DNA of 64,000 bases from an archaeon (GCA_024277355.1 JAJRVL010000005.1:24428-88427); one strand, 5' to 3'; counted from the first letter of the stretch, positions 1,926 through 46,438 are shown. The notes: generated by a model from the letters alone, not told the origin. Numbers and translations are program-made.

Positions 1926-2906
1926 TTAAATCCAGTTAACTTTTATTTGATCAGTTCTTTGTTTTGGAAGAATCATGCTTTCATTTAGGTTTGTTTTTTT
2001 TCCTGCTTTAAATTCAATTAATCCCTGCCAGCCAATCATTGCTCCGTTATCAACACAAACACTTCTTTCAGGAACAAAAAATTTTGCTTTTCGCTGTTTA
2101 CACATTTTTTTCATTATTTCTCTTAAAGCATTGCTTGAAGCAACTCCTCCTGTCAAAAGCAGTTCTTTTTTTCCTGTATGGGCTAAGGTTCTTTCAGTTA
2201 CTTCTGTCAGCATTGCAAAAGCATTATGCATTAAACTACAAACTAAATCTTCTTTTCTTTCTTTTTTAATTTTTTGTTTGCCTGCTGTAAGTAAACCAGA
2301 AAAAGCTAAATCCATTCCTTTAACCGTATAAGGCAGTTCAATGAAATTTTTTCCTTTAAAATATATTTTATCCATTACTGGCCCTGCAGGAAAACCTAAA
2401 TCTATTTCCCTTCCAAACACATCAAGAAAATTTCCTATTCCAATGTCTAATGTTTCGCCATAAATTCTGTATCTTTTTTTTTCTAAACCAATAATTTGTG
2501 TATTAGCTCCGGAAGCATAACAAGTTACAGGGTCTTTTGCTTTAGTTAATTTTTTTCCGATTTCTATATGGGAGATGCAATGGTTTACTCCAACCAAAGA
2601 TTTATTATGTAGCAAACTTAAAGTTCTTGCAACTGTTGCCCCTACTTTTAAGCAGTTTCCTAATCCTGGTCCCTGAGAAAAAGAAATTAAATCAACTTCT
2701 TTTATTGAAAGATTTGCTTTTTCTAATGCATTTTCTATTATTTCTTTTGCGTTTTTGTAATGAAAGTCTGCTGCTTCTCTTGGGTGGATTCCTACTGATT
2801 CTTTTTTCACATAAGCTTTTTTTTCGTTTGCAAGAATTCTGCATTTTTCATTTACTATTCCTATTCCAAATGTGTGTGCTGTTGATTCAATTCCTAATGA
2901 AATCAT
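1926..2906 (-). CDS. kae1: tRNA N6-adenosine threonylcarbamoyltransferase Kae1 (TsaD family)
   Basis: The 326-aa protein has the GIESTAHTFGIGIV, SQGPGLGNCLKVG and VNHCISHIEI motifs typical of Kae1/TsaD. An AGAGGA SD lies upstream. Confidence 0.9.
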   Translation of the reverse strand: MISLGIESTAHTFGIGIVNEKCRILANEKKAYVKKESVGIHPREAADFHYKNAKEIIENALEKANLSIKEVDLISFSQGPGLGNCLKVGATVARTLSLLHNKSLVGVNHCISHIEIGKKLTKAKDPVTCYASGANTQIIGLEKKRYRIYGETLDIGIGNFLDVFGREIDLGFPAGPVMDKIYFKGKNFIELPYTVKGMDLAFSGLLTAGKQKIKKERKEDLVCSLMHNAFAMLTEVTERTLAHTGKKELLLTGGVASSNALREIMKKMCKQRKAKFFVPERSVCVDNGAMIGWQGLIEFKAGKKTNLNESMILPKQRTDQIKVNWI

Positions 2907-2975
2907 TTTTTTTCCTCTTTTTTTAAGATTTTCTTATGGCTAATTCTTTTATTCTCATTGCTTTAATTTTGTTGT

Positions 2976-3437
2976 ATGAATAAGGCTCCTTTAATTAAAT
3001 TAAGTTCTGCAAAAAAACAGAGAATAAGAGATGCAGGAAAAGCCATTGATTTAATGAATAAATCAAAATCAAAGTTTGTTGTGGTTCCCCGTAATGTAAG
3101 GGAATTAATAAGGGACAAAAGAAAATGGTTTTTTATCAGAAATGAAATGGGAGAAAAAATAGGAACCGTCTCACTTGACTTAAAAAAAGGAGAAATAGGC
3201 GGTTTTTCTGTTCTTCCTAAATATCGTGGATTAAAAAATTCTCTTCCTGCATTAAAAAAAGCAGAAGGAATTATGAAAAAAGCAGGTCATAAAAAGGCAA
3301 TATTACACATTAATATTAATTCTGAAAGAACAATAAAACTTCTTGAAATTTTAGGTTATGCTAAAGGAAAGAAACTTTTTGGAGAAAAATATGGAGTTAA
3401 ATTTAACCTTATTGAACTAGAAAAAAAACTGGATTAG
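2976..3437 (+). CDS. GNAT-family N-acetyltransferase (putative)
   Basis: 153 aa; GEIGGFSVLPKYRG resembles GNAT motif A (acetyl-CoA binding). Confidence 0.45.
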   Translation: MNKAPLIKLSSAKKQRIRDAGKAIDLMNKSKSKFVVVPRNVRELIRDKRKWFFIRNEMGEKIGTVSLDLKKGEIGGFSVLPKYRGLKNSLPALKKAEGIMKKAGHKKAILHININSERTIKLLEILGYAKGKKLFGEKYGVKFNLIELEKKLD

Positions 3438-4012
3438 TTTTTTAAAACTTTTTCAATTTCTTTTAAAGTTATTTTTCCCTGCCTTATAATCTTTTTTTCT
3501 TTTACGTAATAAATTGTGCTTGGCTTGTTTTCTTCAAGTATTCCGTCATCAATTATAAAATCAACTTTTTTGCTTAAAACTTTTACTGCTTTATCAAAAG
3601 AATAAATTGGTTTTTTTCCGGACAAATTTGCACTGGTTGAAATTATTGGTTCATTTAATTCTTTTACTATTCCTAAAGCAGTTTCATTTGAACTAATTCT
3701 TAAAGCAATTTTTTCTTTGCTTACTTCTTCAGGAATTTTATTTTTTTTTGGAACAATTAAAGTTAAATGCCCTTTAAATGCGTTAAGTAATTTTTCTGCT
3801 TCAGAATTTATTTCTGCATAATTTTCTGCCATTTTTTTGTCTGCAACAATTATCAAAAAAGGTTTTATTCTATCTTGCTTTATTTCTCTGATTCTTTTAA
3901 TTGAATTAATGTCTGTTAATTTACATCCAATTCCATAACTTGTTTCTGTTGGATAAATTATTACTCCGTTTTTCTTAAGCACAAATAAAGCCATTTTGAT
4001 TTTTTTGTTCAT
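3434..4012 (-). CDS. sua5: L-threonylcarbamoyladenylate synthase, Sua5/YrdC/TsaC family
   Basis: YPTETSYGIGC motif and overall YrdC-like fold signature. Adjacent to kae1, so the two form a t6A module. Confidence 0.85.
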   Translation of the reverse strand: MNKKIKMALFVLKKNGVIIYPTETSYGIGCKLTDINSIKRIREIKQDRIKPFLIIVADKKMAENYAEINSEAEKLLNAFKGHLTLIVPKKNKIPEEVSKEKIALRISSNETALGIVKELNEPIISTSANLSGKKPIYSFDKAVKVLSKKVDFIIDDGILEENKPSTIYYVKEKKIIRQGKITLKEIEKVLKN

Positions 4013-4572
4013 GACATCATCACTAAAATTACTGCATTATACGCCATATGTCCTATAATATTTGGAATTAAATTATTATTTTTTTTGAAATAATATGCTA
4101 AAAATAATCCTGCAATAAACGCTCCAATTATTTCTGTTGTTGAACCATAAGCAAAATGAGCTAAAGCAAAAATTACTGAAGAAAAAAAGATACCCATTTT
4201 TTTCACTAAAAATCCCCTGAAAAAAATTTCTTCTGAAATTACTCTTATAGTAAGAAAATAAAAAAGAAGTAAAGGGGTTTTAATGCTTATTTTTTTTACT
4301 GTTTCAGCTACTTTTGTTAAGTCATTTATTCCAAACAAAGAACTTGAAACTGAAACTAAAAGAGAAATTGCAATTAAACCTGCAATAATTAAAACTGATT
4401 TTTTTATTAGTTCTTTTCTGTTAATTTTTTTTATTCCTATTTCTGCAAGTGATTTTTTTACTGATTTGTTGTTATAGCAATAGTAAATTAAAGGGAGAAT
4501 AAAAATTAAATCCAATAAAATAATCTGAATTATTTTTGTTCCCCTTTTTGTTTCCATTAAGTGTAAGAACAT
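4009..4572 (-). CDS. CPBP-family intramembrane metalloprotease (CAAX protease / Abi)
   Basis: The three CPBP motifs are present: SEEIFFRG (EExxxR), FALAHF (FxxxH) and GHMAYN (HxxxN). The protein is multi-TM. Confidence 0.7.
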
Positions 4573-4779
4573 TTTCCACAGGAATGCCTGTCTTTGTGTT
4601 CAGCCATAAATACTCCTGAACCGCACTTAGGACAAAATCTGTTTTTCTTTTTTATTTCGTTTCCTGTTATTTCATATTTTTCTGATTTTTTTATATTTGG
4701 ATGTTTTTTTCTTGTTTTTTTTGCCATTAACTCACCTGTTTTCTTTCTAATTAATTTTTTTAATTGTTTTTGTTGTTTC

Positions 4780-5990: not shown

Positions 5991-6006
5991 TTTTTTTCCT
6001 CCTTAT

Positions 6007-11363: not shown

Positions 11364-11729
11364 TCACTTCTTTAACTCGTTTATTTTTTTTATTATTTCT
11401 TCTAATTCTTTTTTTGCATTTCCTTCTTCAACTAATGCAATTGAAGCTGTTCCAACTGAAATGCCTGTTTTTTCTCCTAATTCTTTTTTTGTTGAAATAT
11501 AAGAAAAAGGAATTTTTTTTTCTTCACATAACAAAGGCAAATGCATTACTAATTCCTGAGGGCTAATGTCTTCTGCAATAAAAATGATTTTTGCTGTTCC
11601 TCTTTCTATTGCTTTAGTTGTTTCGTTTACACCTATTCTGATTTTACCACTGTTTTTTGCTTTTTCAATTAGTGCTAATTGTTTTTCTTTTAGTTCTTTG
11701 CCTACGCTGAACTTAACGTATTCTGCCAT
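11364..11729 (-). CDS. rpl7ae: Ribosomal protein L7Ae (K-turn binding)
   Basis: GVNETTKAIERGTAKIIFIAED motif. GGAGGT SD upstream, with a hairpin in the leader. Confidence 0.9.
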   Translation of the reverse strand: MAEYVKFSVGKELKEKQLALIEKAKNSGKIRIGVNETTKAIERGTAKIIFIAEDISPQELVMHLPLLCEEKKIPFSYISTKKELGEKTGISVGTASIALVEEGNAKKELEEIIKKINELKK

Positions 11730-11841
11730 TTAAAATCAACCTCCTTGCAGCCATTTATGGCTGTTCATCGTCATCGGCAAAATGAGTATAAGAAAACCTG
11801 TCAAAAAAGGTTTTTAAAGGTATTTTAATGCATTTCTGTGT

Positions 11842-12780
11842 ATGTCTAAACCTAAAAGATCTGGCTTAAAAAGAAACAGATTTGTGCATCAAAAATTTCA
11901 TGGAAAACTTAATGTTTCTAGTTCTTCAAATCTTATTCCTTATTATTCTGCTGTTAAAGTTGTAACAATTAATGGCAAAAAATATGTTAAAAAAACTCAT
12001 TCAGGTTTTTTTTTGCAGCCTGATGTAAATCAGTCTAAACATGCATTAAATCCTGAACTTGCAAGAAGTTTAACAGCAGGAGAATCAATTGTTTTAAGAG
12101 GAGTTTCAAGAATTTATAACAGGCTTAAAAGAAAAGGAGTTTTCAGAAAAAAAGAAAAAAAAATTTATTTACTTAATTTTTCCAAACTTTTTAGGGTTAA
12201 TTTAAGCAAAACAAAGCCTTCAAAAAATTTTATTTTATCAGAATATATAAATGCTCCTGATGCAGGGCGTCTTTATTCTTTTGTGAAATTTGGAAAAATA
12301 TTAGGTGCTTCTCCTAAAGAAGAAAAAAAATGCATGCAATTCATAAAAAAACAGAGGTTAATTAAGGTTTTAGAAAATAAAAAATCAAGAGAATCTTTTG
12401 CTTCTAAACTTTATTCGGCTGTTGAGCAGGCTGCAAGGGATTTAGCTGTTGCAGAAAAAGAATTTAAAAAAAATGCAGCAAAAAAAGGTTTAAATGAAAA
12501 TGTTTTGTTTGATGTGTCTGAAAGAAAAGATAATGTTTTGTTTAGAGTTCCTGAAACAGATTTTAATGAAATTAAACGAGACAATTTTGTTGTTAATTCT
12601 TTTGAAAGGGGAGTTTTTAATCTTACTTTAATTGATCTTCTTTATCCTTCAAGTGATAAAAAATTTCATCCTTCAATTACAAGAACAAAAAAACGAAACA
12701 AGCTTAAGCAGTGGGAAAACAAAAATCCTAAAGAATTTTATAGTTCTGAAGGCCATCCAAAAAGAAGAAAGAAAAAATAA
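11842..12780 (+). CDS. Basic hypothetical protein, paralog A of a two-member family (see 43498..44235)
   Basis: 312 aa, K/R-rich, with no recognisable domain. Three collinear blocks are shared with the ORF at 43498..44235. It lies antisense to the surrounding operons. Confidence 0.5.
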   Translation: MSKPKRSGLKRNRFVHQKFHGKLNVSSSSNLIPYYSAVKVVTINGKKYVKKTHSGFFLQPDVNQSKHALNPELARSLTAGESIVLRGVSRIYNRLKRKGVFRKKEKKIYLLNFSKLFRVNLSKTKPSKNFILSEYINAPDAGRLYSFVKFGKILGASPKEEKKCMQFIKKQRLIKVLENKKSRESFASKLYSAVEQAARDLAVAEKEFKKNAAKKGLNENVLFDVSERKDNVLFRVPETDFNEIKRDNFVVNSFERGVFNLTLIDLLYPSSDKKFHPSITRTKKRNKLKQWENKNPKEFYSSEGHPKRRKKK

Positions 12781-12781
12781 T

Positions 12782-13795
12782 TCACTTATGTGTAAACCAT
12801 AAAACAACTTTTTTTTCTTGTATTTCATCTATTCTTGCATAACCAAAATTTTCTAGTTGAACAGTGTTTCCTTCTTTTTCATCTAAGATTTCTTTGTTTA
12901 TTATGCCGTGTTTTTTTGTTCCGTCATCTAAAACTATTTCTGCTGTAATTTCTTTTAGTATCCATTGAATTAAAGGTTTGTTTTCTAGTTTTTGTATTCC
13001 AGTGAATTCTCCAAAAACCTGTGTTTGATTTTTATTGATTACACGAAAATTTAATGCATGTTTTAATCTAACAATTTTTCCTTCATTCATTTTTTCTGAA
13101 TCTTTTTGTGAAATCAAAAAATTTTGGCTTCCTTCTTTTAATTTATAAACTCTTAATTGATCAGGGAAATCCGGATGAAGTGGTTTTTCTATTTCTAATT
13201 CAGGAACAAAATTTACATCTAATCTGATTGGATGTTCAATAAAATAATATCTGTCTGATTTGCTGTCAATAAAATGTTTATTTAAATCAACCATTTTATT
13301 AAAGTCAATTGTTACATCAGAACTTTTTGTTCCAATTTCTTTGATTATTTCTTTTATTGTTTTAGGAGAAAAACCTCTTCTTCTTAAAGCTTTAATAGTT
13401 CCTAATCTTGGGTCATCCCATCCTGAATAAATTCCTTTTTCTATTCCTTCTTTTATTTTTGAAGTGCTTAAAACCATTTCAGCTAATTTAATTCTGCCTG
13501 TATGTAATGTGTGAGGATAATTCCACCCAAAATATTCATATAAAAATTTTTGTTTTTCTGCATTTTGTGCATGTTCTTGTCCTCTTATAATTAAAGTTAC
13601 TTTCATTTCATGATCATCTATTGCTGAAGCAAAATTATATGAAGGCCATACCTTATATTTTTGATTAACTCTTGGGTGTTCTGGTTCATCAACTATTTTT
13701 GCAGCCCACCAGTCTCTTAAAGAAGGATCTTTTGCATTTAAATCAGTTTTAATTCTTAATACAGCCTGTCCTTCTTTTAATTCATTTGAAAGCAT
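12782..13795 (-). CDS. gltX: Glutamyl-tRNA synthetase, C-terminal segment (same frame as the N-terminal segment, separated by TAA plus 12 sense codons)
   Basis: EGQAVLRIKTDL...RDWWAAKIV...YNFASAIDDH matches the GluRS/GlnRS core. The segment continues through to the anticodon-binding domain. Confidence 0.85.
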   Translation of the reverse strand: MLSNELKEGQAVLRIKTDLNAKDPSLRDWWAAKIVDEPEHPRVNQKYKVWPSYNFASAIDDHEMKVTLIIRGQEHAQNAEKQKFLYEYFGWNYPHTLHTGRIKLAEMVLSTSKIKEGIEKGIYSGWDDPRLGTIKALRRRGFSPKTIKEIIKEIGTKSSDVTIDFNKMVDLNKHFIDSKSDRYYFIEHPIRLDVNFVPELEIEKPLHPDFPDQLRVYKLKEGSQNFLISQKDSEKMNEGKIVRLKHALNFRVINKNQTQVFGEFTGIQKLENKPLIQWILKEITAEIVLDDGTKKHGIINKEILDEKEGNTVQLENFGYARIDEIQEKKVVLWFTHK

Positions 13796-13831
13796 TTTTT
13801 CAAATTCTTTTAATTGTTCGTCAGGTTTTTT

Positions 13832-14473
13832 TTATCTGCATTCGCATCCTTTGTTTTCATCAATTAATTGTTTCCATTTTTCTTTTTCGCATGAACAGAC
13901 ATACGCTTTTCCTATTGAAATAACTTTTTTCATAAAAGAATAATATATTTCCATTCTGTCTGAAGCAAAAAAAGTTTCATCTGCTTTTACTCCAAGCCAG
14001 TTCATGTCTTCTTTAAATATTTGTTCTGCATTTTTAATTGGTTTTTTTGTTTTAGGATCAGTATCATCAAATCTTAAAATAAATTTTCCATTATATTTTT
14101 TTGCGTATTCAAATGAATTAAGCAAAGCCCTTGCATTGCCTAAATGAAAAGGTCCATTAGGATTTGGGGCATAACGCGTTACTACTTGTTCTTTTTCTGC
14201 CCAGTCTAACTGCATTTCTTCTTTTTGTTTTCTTTCAGGCAGTTCATTAAAATCCATTGAATTAAATTTTTCTTCTAATTCTTTTTTATCCATTGAATTA
14301 ACTGATTCAACTGTTTTGGTTATTTCTTTTATTTCTTTGCTTAAGTTTTTTGCCAGTTCTTTGTCTATTGCCATTAGTTTTGAAATTACTGCTTTTAATT
14401 CTGCTTTTCCTGAATGTTCAACTGCATTTTTTACAGCATATTTAAAAGTTAATTCATTTAATTTTTGTTTCAT
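13832..14473 (-). CDS. gltX: Glutamyl-tRNA synthetase, N-terminal catalytic segment (ends at in-frame TAA)
   Basis: RYAPNPNGPFHLGNAR carries the class I HIGH motif, and AYVCSC...C.CR is the Zn-binding pattern of archaeal GluRS. Confidence 0.85.
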   Translation of the reverse strand: MKQKLNELTFKYAVKNAVEHSGKAELKAVISKLMAIDKELAKNLSKEIKEITKTVESVNSMDKKELEEKFNSMDFNELPERKQKEEMQLDWAEKEQVVTRYAPNPNGPFHLGNARALLNSFEYAKKYNGKFILRFDDTDPKTKKPIKNAEQIFKEDMNWLGVKADETFFASDRMEIYYSFMKKVISIGKAYVCSCEKEKWKQLIDENKGCECR

Positions 14474-37056: not shown

Positions 37057-39624
37057 CTATTGCTTTTTCACAAGCATTACTACTATTATAATTATTATTG
37101 CAAGCAATCCAATTGTTACTGCTGCATTTTGTCCTAATGAAATTAACGCTGTTGCTGCTCCTATTTCTTTTGTTTCTGATTTAGTGTTAATTTCTTTGCC
37201 ATTATCAAGAACAAATGAAACAGGAATTTCTTTTTCTGTTCCATTTGTTTTTAATTTAAAGAATACTTCTTTTGTTTCTCCTGCTTTAACTTCCACTTTA
37301 GTGTTTCCTTCTAGTGTCCATTCTTCTGGAATTTCAACAATCAAATTTCCATTGATTCCTTCTGCTGTTTCATTTTCAATTGTTATTTTTAATTCTGTTT
37401 CATTAAATACTTTTTTTGTTGTTTCAGCGGAAATTTTTATTTCTTTTTCTTCAACAATTAATTCTATTGCTTTTTCAATTCTTTTTCCTGCTGATTCAAC
37501 TACAAGAACTGCATTATATTTTCCTGAATTTTCTGCTTTAATTTCAATGCTTATTGTTCTATTTGAATTAGCCGGAATTACTATGCTTTTTTCATTTGCT
37601 TTTAATAAACCTAAATCTTCCATAAAAACTCTGAATTCTTTTGATGAAGAAGAATTATTAATTAAAGTAAAAGAAATGCTGTCATCTAAAGAAACTATTT
37701 TTTTTGAAGGGAAATCAGTTACTTCAAAAGCCTGTTCTGAAGAAATTATTTTTGTGGTCTTTGACTGAACATTACATTCTGTTAATGAAACATCATAAAC
37801 CAGATAATTTTCTTTCCCTTCTAATAATTCAACTTCAATTGTTTTTGTAAAAGAATAATTTTTTGGAATGTTAATTGAATAAGGGCTTACACTTAAATTT
37901 GTTCCGTTAATTTTTATTGTTCCTGTTTTGCTTAAAGGATTGTTTATTTTTAATGTAATTTTTTCTTTTCCTAAAACACTTTTAATGCTAGGGACTTCCA
38001 AAGAAAAATCTGAACAATTGTCTGTTGTTTCCTGTTCTTCTTCATCTTCATTTCCTGTGTTATTGTTATAGTAATCTGAATTATTTACTTTTAAGTTAAA
38101 ACTTTTTCTTGTATCTGAAAAAGAACAAGTTTCTCCATTTTCAAATTTTCCTTTTACTTTAAAATAAGCAGTTGAAGTTTTATCTGAACTTACATTATCT
38201 GTTTTTACACTAAAAGAAACATTTTTTTCAGAGTTGTTATTTATATAAGAAGGAAAATCAATGTTTCTGAATTCTGCAAAAGAAGTAAATTCATCAAAGT
38301 CTATTCCTTCAATGTAAAATCTTTCATTTGAATTGTTTTCGACTGAAAAAGAAGCTGAAAAATAATCGTTTTCATTTAAATTTAAATTTTTTGTATTTAA
38401 GTAAATGTCATTGCATTCTCCTTCATTAAAATAAGAATTTTCTACTGTAATGTTTACTGTTTCTTCTCTTATTTCTGAATAAGAACAGTAATTTCCGCCG
38501 GAATAATGCCCTGAAATTCTAATGTAAATTTTTCCTGTTTCATTAAATGAAACTGAATTACTGTTTATTTTGTAGTCAAATTCTCTTGAAGAGTTTTTTG
38601 GAATTAAGCTTGGATTATAACTTTCTGTTGCATTAAAATAAGAACTATTATCTAATACATCAAAATCATCAATATAAAAAGCTGAATCAGAATAATTTCT
38701 CACAGTAAAAGAAAAAGTTTCTGAGTCATTTTCCTGTATTCTTTCATTTGAAGCACTAATACTTATGTTTCCGCATGAATTATCAAATGAGTTATCTGAA
38801 ACTCTTACAATAAAATCTTTTTTTATGTCTGAATAAGAACAGGTTTTTCCTGAAGCAAATTCTCCTTTAATTTTTAAAGTTGCAGTTCCGGTTCTATCTG
38901 AATTAACTTCAGAACTATTAACTTTCAGTCTTACTTGTCCTAAACCATCTGAAGCAATAGATGAATCATTTGAATTAGTAAAAACTCCAAAAAATGATTC
39001 ATATTCAACTGGTGAAACTCCTTTAATGTAAAATCTTTCATTTGAATTATTTTTTATATTAAAAGTAACAAATTCTGTTTCATTTTCATTCATTGCAACT
39101 GAATTAGAAAAAATTTCTATATCGTCGCAATAAGAATCAAAACCTGAATTAACTAAATCTACAAAAGCAATATTAGAGCCTGAATTATAATAATCAGTTG
39201 AATTTTCTGCATAAACAATTACTTTATATTTTGAATAATAATCATCAATAAAAAATGCGTCATACCAGTAAACTGTCTTGTAATTAAGATAATTTAATGA
39301 AATATTTCTTGTATTAGTTGTCTTTAAATAAACCCAGCCGTTATTGTAGCCGTAAATTTCAGCATAAGCTTGAATCCAGTCGTTGTAATAATAGTCGCCG
39401 TAATAATTATAATAATCCAAAAAAAGTTCTGCTCTTATGTCAACTGCATCGTTGTCGTTTACATTAATTGAATTACTCCAATAAGAATCATAATCGCTTC
39501 TTAATTCAACTGAAGAAACTTCAACAAAAAAAGGATGCGAAGTATCAGTAAACACAGCTGAATTCACATTAGATAAAATAAAAATTAAAAGCATTATTAT
39601 AGACAAAAACTTTCTCATAAACAA
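37057..39624 (-). CDS. Large secreted/cell-surface protein with N-terminal signal peptide, >=3 tandem ~110-aa repeats, many N-x-S/T sequons and a C-terminal TM anchor (S-layer/adhesin candidate)
   Basis: N-terminal MFMRKFLSIIMLLIFILSNVNSA. Repeats are marked by F..NNSNERFYI.G and GK.CS(Y/F)S(D/E)I motifs. The protein is rich in N, S, Y and D. The C-terminus is a hydrophobic helix followed by KKQ. Confidence 0.7.
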   Translation of the reverse strand: MFMRKFLSIIMLLIFILSNVNSAVFTDTSHPFFVEVSSVELRSDYDSYWSNSINVNDNDAVDIRAELFLDYYNYYGDYYYNDWIQAYAEIYGYNNGWVYLKTTNTRNISLNYLNYKTVYWYDAFFIDDYYSKYKVIVYAENSTDYYNSGSNIAFVDLVNSGFDSYCDDIEIFSNSVAMNENETEFVTFNIKNNSNERFYIKGVSPVEYESFFGVFTNSNDSSIASDGLGQVRLKVNSSEVNSDRTGTATLKIKGEFASGKTCSYSDIKKDFIVRVSDNSFDNSCGNISISASNERIQENDSETFSFTVRNYSDSAFYIDDFDVLDNSSYFNATESYNPSLIPKNSSREFDYKINSNSVSFNETGKIYIRISGHYSGGNYCSYSEIREETVNITVENSYFNEGECNDIYLNTKNLNLNENDYFSASFSVENNSNERFYIEGIDFDEFTSFAEFRNIDFPSYINNNSEKNVSFSVKTDNVSSDKTSTAYFKVKGKFENGETCSFSDTRKSFNLKVNNSDYYNNNTGNEDEEEQETTDNCSDFSLEVPSIKSVLGKEKITLKINNPLSKTGTIKINGTNLSVSPYSINIPKNYSFTKTIEVELLEGKENYLVYDVSLTECNVQSKTTKIISSEQAFEVTDFPSKKIVSLDDSISFTLINNSSSSKEFRVFMEDLGLLKANEKSIVIPANSNRTISIEIKAENSGKYNAVLVVESAGKRIEKAIELIVEEKEIKISAETTKKVFNETELKITIENETAEGINGNLIVEIPEEWTLEGNTKVEVKAGETKEVFFKLKTNGTEKEIPVSFVLDNGKEINTKSETKEIGAATALISLGQNAAVTIGLLAIIIIIVVMLVKKQ

Positions 39625-39716
39625 CCACCATTAACCACTCAAAAGTGGTAAAATTATATATAAGTCTGTAATTTAATGTATTTAAACATAATGTTTGAGT
39701 TTTTTACTTCTTTTTT

Positions 39717-41147
39717 TTAACCTTTTACAACTCCAATTGGAGTTAATCTTGCAACTTTTTTTGCTATTCCGCTTACTTCTAATGAATTAATTACTTCATC
39801 TATATCTTTGTATGCTTCAGGCATTTCTTCAGATAAAGTTTTTGGAGATCTGGACTTAACAAATCTTCCGTTTTCTTCCATTTCTTTTTTTACTTGTTCC
39901 CCGTTTTTTGTTTTAATTGCTTTTGTTCTGGACATTACTCTTCCTGCTCCGTGGGCAACAGAACCAAAAGTTTCCTGTAATCCTTTTTCTGTTCCTATTA
40001 CAATCCATGATGAAGTTCCCATTGAGCCAGGAATAATTGCCGGATGTCCTGAATCCAGATAACTTTTTGGGTTTTCTTTTTTTCCTGCAGGAAAAGCTCT
40101 TGTTGCTCCTTTTCTATGAACTAATAATTTTTCTTTTTTTCCGTTTAATTCATGTTCTTCAAATTTAGCAATATTATGTGCTACATCATAAACTAACTTC
40201 ATTTCCATTTCTTCTGCTTTTTTTCCTAAAACTTTTTCAAAACTTTTTCTTGTCCAGTGAGTAATTAACTGCCTGTTTGCAAAAGCATAATTTACTGCAC
40301 AAGCCATAGCTTCTAAATAATCTTTTCCTTCTTTTGAATTAATTGGAGTGCAGGCTAATTGTTTATCTGAAACGTTAATTGAATATTTTTTCATTGCATT
40401 TTCCATTGTCTCTAAATAATCTGATGCAATCTGATGTCCAAAACCTCTGCTTCCGCAATGAATCATTATAGTTAAATTTCCTTTTTTTAAACCGAATTTT
40501 TCTGCTGTTTTTTCATCAAAAATTTTTTCTACTTTTTGTATTTCTAAAAAATGATTTCCTGACCCTAATGAACCTAATTGTTTTACTCCTCTTTGAACTG
40601 CTTTTTCTGAAACTTTTTTTGGATTAGCATTTTCTAATTTTCCGTTTTCTTCTGTGTTTTCAATATCTTGTTTCCATCCAAAACCGTTTTCTACTGCCCA
40701 TTTACTTCCTTTTTTCATTACTTCAATTAACTGCCTTTTATCTATTTTTAGTTGTCCTTTTGAACCTATTCCTGCAGGAACTTGCTTAAACAATTCTTCT
40801 AGTAATTCCTGTTCTTTTCCTTTAATGTCTTTTTCAGTTAAATTTGTTTTAATTAATCTTACTCCGCAGTTAATGTCAAACCCTATTCCTCCTGGAGAAA
40901 CAACACCGTTTTCTGAATTAAATGCTGCTATGCCTCCAATTGGAAAACCATAACCCCAATGACAGTCAGGCATTGCAATTGAATATTTTTGTATTCCTGG
41001 AAGTTCAGCTACATTAACTAATTGTTGTATTGCATTTTCTTCTATTTGTTCAAGTAATTTTTTTGTTGCATAAATTCTTGCAGGCACTAACATTTTTCCT
41101 TGCTTTTCTATTTCATAAATTCCTTTTTTTATTTCTTTTAAATTCAT
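39717..41147 (-). CDS. rtcB: RNA-splicing ligase RtcB
   Basis: DCHWGYGFPIGG, GSGNHF and HGAGR motifs; 476 aa. Confidence 0.95.
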   Translation of the reverse strand: MNLKEIKKGIYEIEKQGKMLVPARIYATKKLLEQIEENAIQQLVNVAELPGIQKYSIAMPDCHWGYGFPIGGIAAFNSENGVVSPGGIGFDINCGVRLIKTNLTEKDIKGKEQELLEELFKQVPAGIGSKGQLKIDKRQLIEVMKKGSKWAVENGFGWKQDIENTEENGKLENANPKKVSEKAVQRGVKQLGSLGSGNHFLEIQKVEKIFDEKTAEKFGLKKGNLTIMIHCGSRGFGHQIASDYLETMENAMKKYSINVSDKQLACTPINSKEGKDYLEAMACAVNYAFANRQLITHWTRKSFEKVLGKKAEEMEMKLVYDVAHNIAKFEEHELNGKKEKLLVHRKGATRAFPAGKKENPKSYLDSGHPAIIPGSMGTSSWIVIGTEKGLQETFGSVAHGAGRVMSRTKAIKTKNGEQVKKEMEENGRFVKSRSPKTLSEEMPEAYKDIDEVINSLEVSGIAKKVARLTPIGVVKG

Positions 41148-41159
41148 TTTGTCTTCACT

Positions 41160-41594
41160 TTAAACATCAACTAATACTTCTGCTGTCCATTCTTCTTTTT
41201 TTTCTACTTTGAATTCATGTTTTGTTATTGCTTTGATTTCTGTTTTGATTTCGTGTTTGTCTAAATTAATTTTTTCTCCTAAACAGAAAACTATTAATTT
41301 AAATTCAGTTTTTTCATTGATTTTTTTTTCTGTTAATTTTTTTATTTGAAATTCAGAAAAAATTAATTCGTTTGCATCAATTTCAAATAATAATTCCTGC
41401 AAAAATTTAAATAAAAGTTGTTCAAATGATTCTGCTTTAATTTCAATTATTCCTTTTCCTTTTTTTTCTATTTCTTTTAAGTCAATAATTGAATTGCATA
41501 AAGCTTTACCTGAATTAATAATTAGTTCTTCTTTTGTTTTGCCGTAAGCCTTAAATTTAATGTCTGCTGTATGCTCTAAATATTCATATTGCAT
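41160..41594 (-). CDS. Archease (RtcB activator)
   Basis: MQYEYLEHTADIKFKAYGKT archease N-terminal signature. Adjacent to rtcB. Confidence 0.85.
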   Translation of the reverse strand: MQYEYLEHTADIKFKAYGKTKEELIINSGKALCNSIIDLKEIEKKGKGIIEIKAESFEQLLFKFLQELLFEIDANELIFSEFQIKKLTEKKINEKTEFKLIVFCLGEKINLDKHEIKTEIKAITKHEFKVEKKEEWTAEVLVDV

Positions 41595-42028: not shown

Positions 42029-43294
<1,266 letters not shown>

Positions 43295-43497
43295 TTGAAA
43301 TACACCTCCAAAGGTAAAATTCACTTTAATGTTTGAACATTTAATTTTGTAAAAAAACACTTTAATTAAAGAAAATAGTGCTTTCTCCAATTATTATTCT
43401 TTAAAACAAAAACTATTTAAATGCTTTTATAAAGGATTCTGGATTCTTTTAACTTAAAAAACATATTTTTAAATTAAAGTTTGAAGTTAATTATTTT

Positions 43498-44235
43498 ATG
43501 CCAAAAGGAAAAAACAGGCTGCCTAAAAGCAGGTTAGTGGAAGTTCTTTCAGAGAAAAAAAAAGTGTTGGAAATAAAAAGACCTAAATCAATGGAAAAAA
43601 GCAGGATTATTTCTCCTAAACTGGCTTTAAAGACTGCAGTAACTTTTTTAAATGATGCGACAAAAAGAAATTCTAATAATTCAACTAAATTTTTTCATAA
43701 ATTAAAATCTTCAAAAAGTACAAGTTCTTTTGCTATTTTTGGTTTTGGTGGAAGAAATATTAACAGAGGAGCTTTTGTTCAAAGAATTGAATCCATATTA
43801 AAAGGAGATGATTTAACTGAAGTTAAAAGACAGTTTGAAAGACAGTTTAGTAAATTAACAAGATATTCTTTGGCTGATTTAGTTGAATTAAGCGGAAGTC
43901 CTTTGTTAGGTTCAAGAGGAACCGCTAAAGTTGAAGTTACAAAAAAAAATGGCGTTAATAATGTTGTTTTGCTTGGTGCGGCTGTTCCAAGTTTTAAAAG
44001 AAATTCTACAGTAGTTGAAAGAAATAAGCGTTTTCTTTATGAAAATTTAATTAATAATGTTAGAAGGGTTTATGGAAAAAAAACTAATTTTACAATTAGA
44101 ATTCCAAAAGAAGATTCAAGAATTGCAAGTTATTTAGAAAGCAAATTTGTTATTGAAAAAACTGAATCAATGCCTAATATTATAAGTTTAACAATAGACT
44201 TAAGTAAAACATATAAAAGAAAAAAAGGAAAATAA
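43498..44235 (+). CDS. Basic hypothetical protein, paralog B of the two-member family (see 11842..12780)
   Basis: 245 aa with no recognisable domain. It is inserted antisense between aEF1A and aEF2. Blocks MPKGKNRLPKSRLV, TRYSLADLVELSGSP and FTIRIPKED...FVIEKTESMPNIISLTIDL match paralog A. Confidence 0.5.
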   Translation: MPKGKNRLPKSRLVEVLSEKKKVLEIKRPKSMEKSRIISPKLALKTAVTFLNDATKRNSNNSTKFFHKLKSSKSTSSFAIFGFGGRNINRGAFVQRIESILKGDDLTEVKRQFERQFSKLTRYSLADLVELSGSPLLGSRGTAKVEVTKKNGVNNVVLLGAAVPSFKRNSTVVERNKRFLYENLINNVRRVYGKKTNFTIRIPKEDSRIASYLESKFVIEKTESMPNIISLTIDLSKTYKRKKGK

Positions 44236-44242
44236 TTTTTTT

Positions 44243-46438
44243 TTAATCAAAAAAGAATTCTGCTTTTTTTGGTTCTGGATCCATTCCTTTTCTTTTTCTG
44301 ATGTCAACAATAGTGTTGTGCTGTAATTCTCTTGGAAGCATTTCATATCCTGCATATTCTGCTGTCCAGATTGCTCTTCCTTGTGTTGCGCCTCTTATTG
44401 CTGCACTAAACCCAATTAATTCTTTTACTGGAGCTTTTCCAATTATTATTGTTTGATCTCCTTCGTGTCTCATGTCAGTTATTTGTGTTCTTCTTGCGCC
44501 TAATTCTTTGCTTACTGATCCCATGAAATCTTCTGGAACAATAATTGATAAAGTTTGTTTTGGTTCAAGCAATACTGCATCTGACTGCAGCATGCATGCA
44601 TAAATTCCTCTGGTAATTGCAGGCAATACTTGTGCTGGTCCTCTGTGAATTGCGTCTTCGTGCAATTTTGCGTCAGTTAAAACTACTTTTACTCCCTGAC
44701 ATTTTTCTTTTGATAATGGTCCTTGATTTGTTGCATCATTAAATGCCTGCATAACTAATTCTCTTACTTCAAATAATGCTTCAATTCCTTTTGTTGCATT
44801 AACAATATAACAGTTGTTGTTTACTGTCCAAATTCTTTTTGCTTCATCTCTGTCTATTCCCATGTCAATAAATTGCTGAACTAAATGCTTGTCTTTATCT
44901 CTTATTTTTCCTTGAATTTTTGATTCATTTAATTGTTTTAATATTTCTGCAGGAATTGGCTCTACATGCATATAAAATTTATTGTGTTTGTTTGGTGTTT
45001 TTGCTTCATGTTTTTTAGGAGATTCTTTTGTTATTGTTTCTCTATATACAACTATTGGAGCACTTACTGTGACTGGAATTTTATGGTCTACTTCAATTCT
45101 ATGCTGTGTTACTTCTAAGTGTAGTTCTCCCATTCCTGAAAGCAAATGTTCGCCTGTATCCTGATTTATTGTTGCTTTAATATTTGGGTCTTCTTTTGTT
45201 ATTTGTCTTATTGTTTCAATTAATTTAGGTAAATTTTTTGCTTCTTTTGCTTCAACTGAAACAGTCATTACTGGTTCAGCATTAGACATAAATGATTCAA
45301 ATTCTTTCATTTTTAAAGTTGAAATTGTTTCGCCTGCATAAACTTCTTTTAATCCTACTAATGCTGCAATATTTCCTGCTGGAATTTCGCTTACCTGGAC
45401 TCTTTCTGGTCCCATAAATAATGCAACTTGTTGTACTCCGATTTCTTTTTGTGATCCAATTAATTTTACAGTTGTTCCTTTTCTTACTGTTCCTGAATAA
45501 ATTCTTCCTGTTGCTACATCTCCTGCATGAGGGTCAACACTTATATCTACAACCATCATTGCTAATGGTCCGTTTGGATCGCATGCAAGCATTGCTTTTC
45601 CTTCTTCGCTTTCTATTTCTCCTGTCCAAATTTTTGGTATTCTGTATCTTTGTGCAATTAAAGGATTAGGTAAATGTTGTATTACTAATTCAACTATTGC
45701 TTCATATAAAGAACTTTTTTCTGCAAGAGTTTTTTGGTCTTTGTTTTTACAGTAATTGTATACATCTTTAAATGAAATTCCGGTTTTTTTCATGTGCAAA
45801 GCTGATATAGCCCAGTTATAATAAGCTGAACCAAATACTACTGAACCGTTTTCTACTTTTACTTTCCATTTTTCTTTAAATTGTTCTGGAGCATTTTTAT
45901 CTATTAATCTGTTAACTTGAGTTATTGTTTTGATAAATCTTTCCTGCATTTGTTCTGGAGTTAACTGTAATTCGTTGACTAATCTGTCAACTTTATTGAT
46001 AAATAAACATGGTTTTACATTTTCTTTTAATGCCTGTCTTACAACTGTTTCTGTTTGAGGCATTACTCCTTCAACTGAATCCACAACTAATATTACGCCG
46101 TCTACTGCTCTCATTGCTCTTATTACTTCTCCTCCAAAATCAATGTGTCCTGGAGTGTCAATTATATTAATTAAGTGGTCTTTGTCTTGATATTTTTGAA
46201 CTATTGAAACATTAGCTGAATTAATTGTTATTCCTCTTTCTTGTTCTAATTCATAGTAATCCATGAATTGTTGTTTGCCTGCTAATTCAGTTGAAATTAT
46301 GCCGGATGCAGCAATTAAATTGTCGGTCATTGTGGTTTTTCCATGGTCAATATGGGCAACAACACCAATGTTTCTGATGTGTTCTCTTGAATTCATGAAT
46401 TTTTCTGCATTTCTTGCTACGTCTTCTCTTTTACTCAT
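44243..46438 (-). CDS. fusA: Elongation factor 2 (aEF2)
   Basis: IRNIGVVAHIDHGKTT and DTPGHIDF motifs. 731 aa, including the diphthamide-region domain IV. Confidence 0.95.
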   Translation of the reverse strand: MSKREDVARNAEKFMNSREHIRNIGVVAHIDHGKTTMTDNLIAASGIISTELAGKQQFMDYYELEQERGITINSANVSIVQKYQDKDHLINIIDTPGHIDFGGEVIRAMRAVDGVILVVDSVEGVMPQTETVVRQALKENVKPCLFINKVDRLVNELQLTPEQMQERFIKTITQVNRLIDKNAPEQFKEKWKVKVENGSVVFGSAYYNWAISALHMKKTGISFKDVYNYCKNKDQKTLAEKSSLYEAIVELVIQHLPNPLIAQRYRIPKIWTGEIESEEGKAMLACDPNGPLAMMVVDISVDPHAGDVATGRIYSGTVRKGTTVKLIGSQKEIGVQQVALFMGPERVQVSEIPAGNIAALVGLKEVYAGETISTLKMKEFESFMSNAEPVMTVSVEAKEAKNLPKLIETIRQITKEDPNIKATINQDTGEHLLSGMGELHLEVTQHRIEVDHKIPVTVSAPIVVYRETITKESPKKHEAKTPNKHNKFYMHVEPIPAEILKQLNESKIQGKIRDKDKHLVQQFIDMGIDRDEAKRIWTVNNNCYIVNATKGIEALFEVRELVMQAFNDATNQGPLSKEKCQGVKVVLTDAKLHEDAIHRGPAQVLPAITRGIYACMLQSDAVLLEPKQTLSIIVPEDFMGSVSKELGARRTQITDMRHEGDQTIIIGKAPVKELIGFSAAIRGATQGRAIWTAEYAGYEMLPRELQHNTIVDIRKRKGMDPEPKKAEFFFD

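Follow-up and report, generated by a model that had tools for sequence, protein, structure and literature searches.

A clade-restricted gene with a predicted GNAT-like fold lies antisense between the EF2 and EF1A genes of an archaeon

In a 64,000-nucleotide stretch of archaeal DNA (hereafter the window, meaning the whole of the sequence analysed), which is placed in Iainarchaeota (Diapherotrites, DPANN) by its EF1A relatives, a plus-strand gene for a protein of 245 amino acids lies antisense between the genes for EF2 (fusA) and EF1A (tuf). Judged by its conservation rather than by its length, this is a genuine protein-coding gene. We consider it probable that it represents a fast-evolving, clade-restricted, GNAT-like gene in a permissive spacer, whose position reflects descent and whose function we infer. 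The features of the locus are collected in Table 1.

Table 1. Features at the EF2–EF1A junction of the window
Feature	Coordinates	Strand	Basis
Protein-coding gene, 245 aa, subfamily B1 of a clade-specific family	43498..44235	+	ORF, conservation
EF2 (fusA), convergent neighbour	44243..46438	-	ORF, relatives
EF1A (tuf), divergent neighbour	42029..43294	-	ORF, alignment with relatives
EF1A Shine-Dalgarno sequence GGAGGTG, 8 nt before the ATG (43294)	43303..43309	-	Read directly
Run of nine T directly 3' of the TAA stop; candidate archaeal oligo-T terminator	44236..44244	+	Read directly
Candidate archaeal TATA box TTTAAATT	43468..43475	+	Alignment of 8 loci
Near-invariant intergenic block, ~48 nt, with two TATA-like elements, ATTTAAAT and TTTTATAAA	43388..43435	.	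Alignment of 8 loci

The gene, its neighbourhood and its relatives

The layout described in the initial annotation, a plus-strand gene of 245 amino acids antisense between fusA and tuf with an AT-rich upstream region of about 200 nt shared divergently with tuf, is borne out. The open reading frame is present, and the spacer towards EF1A (43295..43497) measures 203 nt with a GC content of 19.2%, versus 28.9% for the window. The genes run in the order L30e/L7Ae-like, NusA, S12, S7, EF2, 245-aa gene, EF1A, S10, archease and RtcB, and between approximately 3.4 and 55.4 kb the minus strand carries nearly all genes. Within this interval the only plus-strand reading frames of at least 110 amino acids that are free of overlap with a minus-strand gene are the 245-aa gene and one for a 312-aa protein at 11842..12780. 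For EF1A itself the mechanical reading frame spans 42029..43390, and the true ATG at 43294 was assigned by alignment with relatives; its Shine-Dalgarno sequence is kept in relatives with and without the insertion. The 245-aa gene and EF2 are arranged tail-to-tail with their stop codons 7 nt apart, and on the EF2 strand the codons of the Lys-rich tail of the 245-aa protein form T-rich tracts downstream of the EF2 stop. The run of nine T residues following the gene is weak evidence for a terminator, since such runs occur often at a GC content of 29%. Scans with Rfam and for tRNAs matched no RNA gene at the locus, with no tRNA in the 41–47 kb region, and no integrase-like or partner reading frame lies between EF2 and EF1A in the window.

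Elsewhere on the minus strand, at 37057..41594, S10 is separated from the L3 operon by archease, RtcB (tRNA ligase) and then an Asn/Ser-rich protein of 855 amino acids that has a signal peptide and, at its C-terminus, a transmembrane segment; the layout of this region is the same in the related locus L001. Over the whole window the plus strand is 45% T and 26% A, since genes lie almost exclusively on the minus strand, and this asymmetry of composition gives rise to many long spurious plus-strand reading frames that overlap real genes.

A reading frame of at least 245 amino acids arose in one of 200 shuffles of the window, so that length alone is weak evidence for a gene. A search of 5.8 billion proteins returned the 245-aa protein itself and one relative with 55% identity at the same position, and six relatives were found by an exhaustive HMMER search of 1.84 billion representative proteins. 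The relatives with readable context, all in this place and orientation, are L001, L004 (= P0008), L082, L083, L084, L085 and, in part, L002. Back-translated pattern scans of genome, metagenome and viral collections, based on a two-sequence alignment, gave no match; the databases hold no annotation of the protein beyond 'hypothetical protein', and literature searches on str-operon gene order and Iainarchaeota hypothetical proteins turned up nothing specific to this gene.

A metagenome scan with the invariant block yielded four further loci (L087–L090), in each of which one or more antisense genes lie between EF1A and EF2. In total, antisense relatives occupy the same EF2–EF1A position in 12 distinct loci (13 were retrieved, of which two are apparently the same gene). 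Wherever the contig extends far enough to show a flank, it matches that of the window, EF2 being convergent and EF1A divergent with respect to the gene. The comparison with relatives that the initial annotation had suggested thus does find a gene between tuf and fusA in related loci, and the arrangement therefore did not arise by chance in a single genome. In the comparison of the window with L001, dN/dS for the 245-aa gene is 0.23, with dS near saturation, versus 0.07 for EF2 and 0.045 for EF1A. The reading frame and its blocks of invariant residues (LGSRGTAKVEV, KRFLYENLI and RIPKEDSRIASYLES) are kept down to approximately 20% identity over the 12 loci. There is consequently hardly any probability left for a spurious reading frame opposite a T-rich spacer, a reading to which the marginal length, the T content of the plus strand and the bare 'hypothetical protein' label would lend themselves: the frame and invariant blocks are conserved, the dN/dS value argues against it, the start codon and promoter align among the loci, and the predicted fold is confident.

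The proteins of L087–L090, L002 and L003 constitute a second subfamily, B2. B2 escapes the B1 HMM but is linked to B1 by profile–profile comparison (probability 97%, E 2.6e-11). Since they also share the same aligned promoter and start codon, B1 and B2 are best read as diverged orthologs. Identity between B1 and B2 is approximately 20%; among the same relatives it is about 88–98% for EF1A, over the stretch present, and 85–90% for EF2. Relatives with an EF1A identity of 82% or less lack the family, which on this comparison is confined to one Iainarchaeota (DPANN) clade whose EF1A sequences, partial or full, are at least ~88% identical to that of the window.

Some of these loci carry more than one gene. 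An extra gene of 227 amino acids in L001 matches the family with an E value of 4e-4 over 109 columns and is probably a third, very divergent tandem copy. In L003 and L087 the extra gene, of 309 or 317 amino acids, is unrelated to the family; it is a second antisense gene (L003 4184..5113 and L087 460..1410, both on the minus strand) located between the family gene and EF2. Both products are basic and seem, by eye, to be conserved between the two loci. The 309-aa gene of L003 overlaps the EF2 stop by 4 nt, and its product has no detectable relation to the 312-aa family of 11842..12780.

The initial annotation had gone further and called the 245-aa gene a clear paralog of the one at 11842..12780, the two being members of one unknown family, each inserted antisense in a translation superoperon, in an arrangement that is probably functionally meaningful; on this reading they would share a purpose. 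Outward resemblances are not lacking: each is a lone antisense gene in ~52 kb of co-oriented genes, the two proteins are basic (pI 10.4 and 10.6) and rich in Lys/Arg at their ends, each gene keeps its position in a relative and has tandem duplicates in some relatives, and each has a TATA-like box approximately 23 nt before the ATG. The best local alignment, a weak one, is a strand-turn-strand-P-S stretch. However, BLASTP gave an E value of 0.77, and the remote-homology check with hhalign gave probabilities of 0.09%, 0.29%, 0.40% and 0.30% with progressively deeper profiles. The family HMM hits no other reading frame of the window and finds no second match in its six-frame translation. The same tests recover distant relatives, namely B2 (97%), the L001 227-aa gene (E 4e-4) and RimI (E 0.0016), and unlike these the 312-aa protein gains no score as the profiles deepen. 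It has, moreover, only about 40 residues after the similar stretch, which would not accommodate the second half of a GNAT core. Paralogy was accordingly rejected, BLASTP, the four hhalign runs and the family HMM all failing to support it, and we regard it as highly improbable; in place of a pair from one family there are two clade-specific basic proteins, unrelated to each other and each encoded in a permissive spacer. The 312-aa protein (P0003/P0004 family) resembles the 245-aa protein in lying antisense beside translation genes, in being very basic and clade-restricted and in its tandem duplication, and differs from it in having no detectable homology, another length and another predicted secondary structure.

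The 312-aa protein has a small family of its own, in which P0004 shares 36% identity and occupies the same spot between L7Ae and GluRS. Its model (pLDDT 39, pTM 0.30) is unusable, and largely helical at low confidence. This family is marked by an invariant ESIVLRG..RIY.RL and a C-terminus H-x-K-R-R-K, and in L086 it is present in tandem (2885..3805 and 3845..4759), again between L7Ae and GluRS. The spacer from L7Ae (11364..11729) to the 312-aa gene, 11730..11841, is 89% identical to its L086 counterpart. It holds an inverted repeat, CAGCCAT-TT-ATGGCTG, and, on the L7Ae strand, GATGA repeats shortly before the Shine-Dalgarno sequence of L7Ae, for which the spacer may serve as an autoregulatory 5' UTR of K-turn type. 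The adjoining glutamyl-tRNA synthetase gene of the window (12782..14473, minus strand) consists of two in-frame reading frames of 213 and 337 amino acids, split by a single TAA at 13832..13834 within AGA-TAA-AAA-AAA. The GluRS of L086 is one reading frame with Glu at the position of this TAA; the split could be an assembly error in the A run, a pseudogene or real.

Promoter elements and insertions at the EF2–EF1A junction

The spacer was aligned over eight loci drawn from both subfamilies, B1 and B2. In all eight, TTTAAATT ends exactly 22 nt before the aligned ATG; the invariant core around it, TTAAATT..AGTT, keeps a fixed distance to the ATG, and a purine-rich, BRE-like ATAA(G/A) lies just upstream. 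In archaea, a TATA box centred approximately 26 nt ahead of the start codon's first base is the mark of a leaderless mRNA. As the centre of TTTAAATT is ~26 nt before the start codon, a leaderless or near-leaderless mRNA is implied, and TTTAAATT appears to drive a promoter of the gene's own.

The intergenic block with the elements ATTTAAAT and TTTTATAAA has a core of ~30 nt that is identical in the eight loci but for one or two positions, despite synonymous sites in the flanking genes that are near saturation (dS ~1). It occurs once in the window and has no match in Rfam. In L001, whose locus contains a second gene, the block remains beside EF1A, and the family gene is preceded by the proximal TATA-to-ATG unit together with a degenerate copy of the block. 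For this reason the block is probably EF1A's, as a promoter or 5'-UTR control region of that gene, although it might also be a transcription-factor site.

The adjacency of EF2 and EF1A within the str-operon order S12-S7-EF2-EF1A-S10, taken in the initial annotation to be otherwise universal, is frequently interrupted in related archaea. Among the 57 Iainarchaeota/Micrarchaeota loci that hold both genes (within L003..L081, with EF1A at 6001 in full-length loci), 27 carry inserts of 471–3955 nt, and in the other 30 the spacer is shorter than 300 nt (72–286 nt, mostly 117–150 nt). Seven further loci have no EF2 within 5–6 kb upstream of EF1A. The inserted genes are mutually unrelated and occur in either orientation; they include arginase-family, Band_7/SPFH, EamA transporter, DNA methylase, Bro-N, amidohydrolase and nucleotidyltransferase genes as well as large secreted or surface proteins. 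In six insert-free loci that were aligned the spacer is ~120–150 nt long, a TATA-like element is present in several of them ~70–95 nt before the EF1A ATG, and a GGAGG-type, Shine-Dalgarno-like sequence precedes EF1A in all six. Since genomes without an insert keep the spacer and, in several of the six aligned, a TATA-like element, EF1A probably has a promoter of its own and the site tolerates insertions. The simplest reading would be that EF1A–S10 is promoted separately from EF2 in this phylum, with the 245-aa gene as one tolerated insertion that became fixed in one clade. Insertions recur at the EF2–EF1A junction of Iainarchaeota and Micrarchaeota. For Iainarchaeota this is of practical use: given the recurrent insertion and the probable EF1A promoter, assumptions about str-cluster synteny and operon structure should not be extended to this phylum.

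A different kind of insertion was seen within EF2 itself. The EF2 genes of the close relatives L003 (507..4187), L082 (904..4698) and L083 (1126..3897) encode 1226, 1264 and 923 amino acids, versus 731 in the window. An intein is identified by Pfam Intein_splicing in L082 and L083, with LAGLIDADG in addition in L082, and in L003 is deduced from the length and the interrupted alignment. These inteins sit just after the GTPase P-loop region. S12 of L082 (5398..6902) also contains an intein; EF2 and S12 of the window have none.

The presence of DNA methylase, Bro-N and nucleotidyltransferase genes at this hotspot, the fast evolution of the 245-aa gene and the two adjacent genes at some loci could conceivably indicate that the gene was left behind or carried in by a mobile element or virus, for instance as the GNAT toxin of a toxin–antitoxin pair; GNAT toxins exist. 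We attach little probability to such an origin. Relatives are absent from PHROGs, PADLOC, INPHARED phages (searched with tblastn) and IMG/VR, the window locus has neither an integrase nor a tRNA, and its single gene has no antitoxin-like partner. Purifying selection is seen, and all loci of the clade agree in position and promoter, which argues for vertical descent rather than mobility.

Predicted fold of the 245-residue protein

The 245-aa protein (pI 10.6, 22% Lys+Arg) is predicted to comprise a disordered, Lys/Arg-rich N-terminus (residues ~1–40), a GNAT-like alpha/beta core (~60–235) and a Lys-rich C-terminal tail. Searches of Pfam, NCBIfam, PHROGs, PADLOC and PDB sequences with this protein returned nothing significant, and for all 12 family members Pfam and NCBIfam gave no match, the Acetyltransf Pfam families included. 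An AlphaFold2 model from seven sequences reached a pLDDT of 77 and a pTM of 0.71, with residues 130–235 above pLDDT 90. The order of its elements fits the GNAT topology beta1-alpha1-alpha2-beta2-beta3-beta4-alpha3-beta5-alpha4-beta6-beta7, with extra strands before alpha1.

All of the top 50 Foldseek matches in the PDB were GNAT acetyltransferases (probability up to 0.99), including FdhC, PatZ, SACOL1063, NatD, NatC, Naa50, Naa10, RimI, ElaA and SpeG. These alignments cover ~100 columns at E values of 1e-3 to 2e-2 and rmsd of 4–5 Å, with low TM-scores of 0.2–0.45. Among the viral models of BFVD the named matches were likewise acetyltransferases, and over both libraries the probability reached 0.99–1.0.

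Profiles were also compared by hhalign with an alignment of four RimI sequences, for which the E. coli RimI query is 100% identical to 5isv_A. The E value was 0.23 for the B1 profile, 0.024 for the B2 profile and 0.0016 (probability 16%) for the combined B1+B2 profile of 12 sequences; the register was always beta4-alpha3-beta5-alpha4, and the score improved as the family profile deepened. A search of PDB sequences with the 12-sequence profile (hmmsearch) gave a single match, to a putative acetyltransferase, with an E value of 0.96. No sequence method reached significance against any GNAT family, the RimI and PDB scores being insignificant on their own. Taken together with the AlphaFold2 model, however, these scores make a GNAT-derived fold likely, on a call that rests on one AlphaFold2 model from seven sequences.

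Whether the fold supports catalysis is less clear. The acetyl-CoA motif A, Q/R-x-x-G-x-G/A, which lies in the beta4-alpha3 loop and binds the pyrophosphate, is absent from the window protein, where the sequence reads V-P-S-F-K-R-N-S-T-V-V. The loop is without Gly in six of the seven B1 members, with no Gly at a conserved position in B1, and B2 holds a partial motif, V-P-x-x-x-R-R-x-G-x-R (R-x-x-G). The position of the usual catalytic Tyr varies in the family. Enzymatic activity is doubtful because the acetyl-CoA motif is absent and the catalytic Tyr is not conserved, and, with due uncertainty, a catalytically degenerate binding protein seems at least as likely for B1 as an enzyme. The best-conserved feature is specific to the family: G-Y-S-x-x-D-L...P-x-L-G-S-x-G-T, located just before beta2/beta3. 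In GNAT proteins this region shapes the acceptor site.

Position, possible function and comparison with known systems

In the explanation that we favour, a GNAT gene would have landed once in a spacer that already separated two transcription units, EF2 with its terminator on one side and EF1A with its promoter and Shine-Dalgarno leader on the other. The insertion would have broken nothing because the spacer already parted these two units, and the position would since have been kept by descent rather than from operon need. The gene has been retained antisense in the EF2–EF1A spacer while the protein diverged to ~20% identity. Its product would most likely bind a negatively charged partner, for which RNA or a component of the translation apparatus is a guess, by way of the basic tails and the surface carrying the G-Y-S-x-x-D-L...P-x-L-G-S-x-G-T motif. 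It might acylate this partner or, in B1, where the acetyl-CoA glycines are lost, act as a catalytically degenerate binding protein.

Descent alone may not account for the strict position and the near-invariant shared block, which could reflect a functional coupling with EF1A. Of the remaining readings the most interesting is that the gene is coupled to the elongation factors, through bidirectional control with EF1A or a convergent 3' end that modulates the ends of EF2 transcripts, and that its product is an active RimI-like acetyltransferase of EF1A, EF2, a ribosomal protein or aminoacyl-tRNA. The position kept in all 12 loci, the near invariance of the ~48-nt block with its palindromic TATA elements, and stop codons that are 7 nt from that of EF2 or overlap it are in keeping with such a coupling, as are the RimI and N-terminal acetyltransferases among the fold matches and the R-x-x-G kept in B2. 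We nevertheless think it unlikely, if still deserving of attention: in L001 the block stays with EF1A and the family gene has its own proximal promoter copy, about half the related loci have taken up unrelated genes at the junction, B1 has lost the acetyl-CoA motif, and the 245-aa protein evolves 6–8 times faster than its supposed partners.

It is distinctly unlikely that the gene encodes an unrecognised clade-specific translation accessory factor, GNAT-derived, whose basic tails recruit it to ribosomes, tRNA or the elongation factors and whose expression is controlled jointly with that of EF1A by the shared block; were it so, the rapid divergence would represent an adaptation of translation in host-dependent archaea with reduced genomes. 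To return to the favoured explanation, a clade-restricted GNAT-like gene in a permissive spacer, the finding is modest and holds no pointer to a new mechanism. If the fold call holds, the family would be a very divergent, clade-restricted GNAT branch in which the acetyl-CoA signature has disappeared or is disappearing and basic tails have been acquired, and it would exemplify the lineage-specific proteins of reduced-genome DPANN archaea that are invisible to sequence annotation.

Two groups of known proteins invite comparison. FemX and L/F-transferase, which are aminoacyl-tRNA-dependent, and pseudo-GNAT domains have the GNAT fold without the canonical acetyl-CoA loop. By analogy, the 245-aa protein may resemble them in a GNAT-like core that has no pyrophosphate glycine signature and in a basic surface that would suit RNA, and its gene adjoins that of EF1A, the carrier of aminoacyl-tRNA; there is no sequence or specific structural link, and none of these proteins appears among the top Foldseek matches. 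The second group comprises RimI, the N-alpha-acetyltransferase of bS18 (5isv/2cnm), and the archaeal enzymes of Ard1/Naa10 type (2x7b, 4lx9). The predicted GNAT-like fold is alike, the domain is small, the window family has a 'V-P' that ends beta4 and an 'L-x-x-x-G-F'-like motif B, B2 has R-x-x-G, and the genomic neighbourhood of the 245-aa gene consists of translation genes. In contrast to RimI and the Naa10-type enzymes, the window protein is without the Q/R-x-x-G-x-G/A glycines, a conserved Tyr or a significant Acetyltransf Pfam match; it has instead long Lys/Arg-rich N- and C-terminal tails and the family-specific G-Y-S motif, and it belongs to a fast-evolving family limited to one clade.
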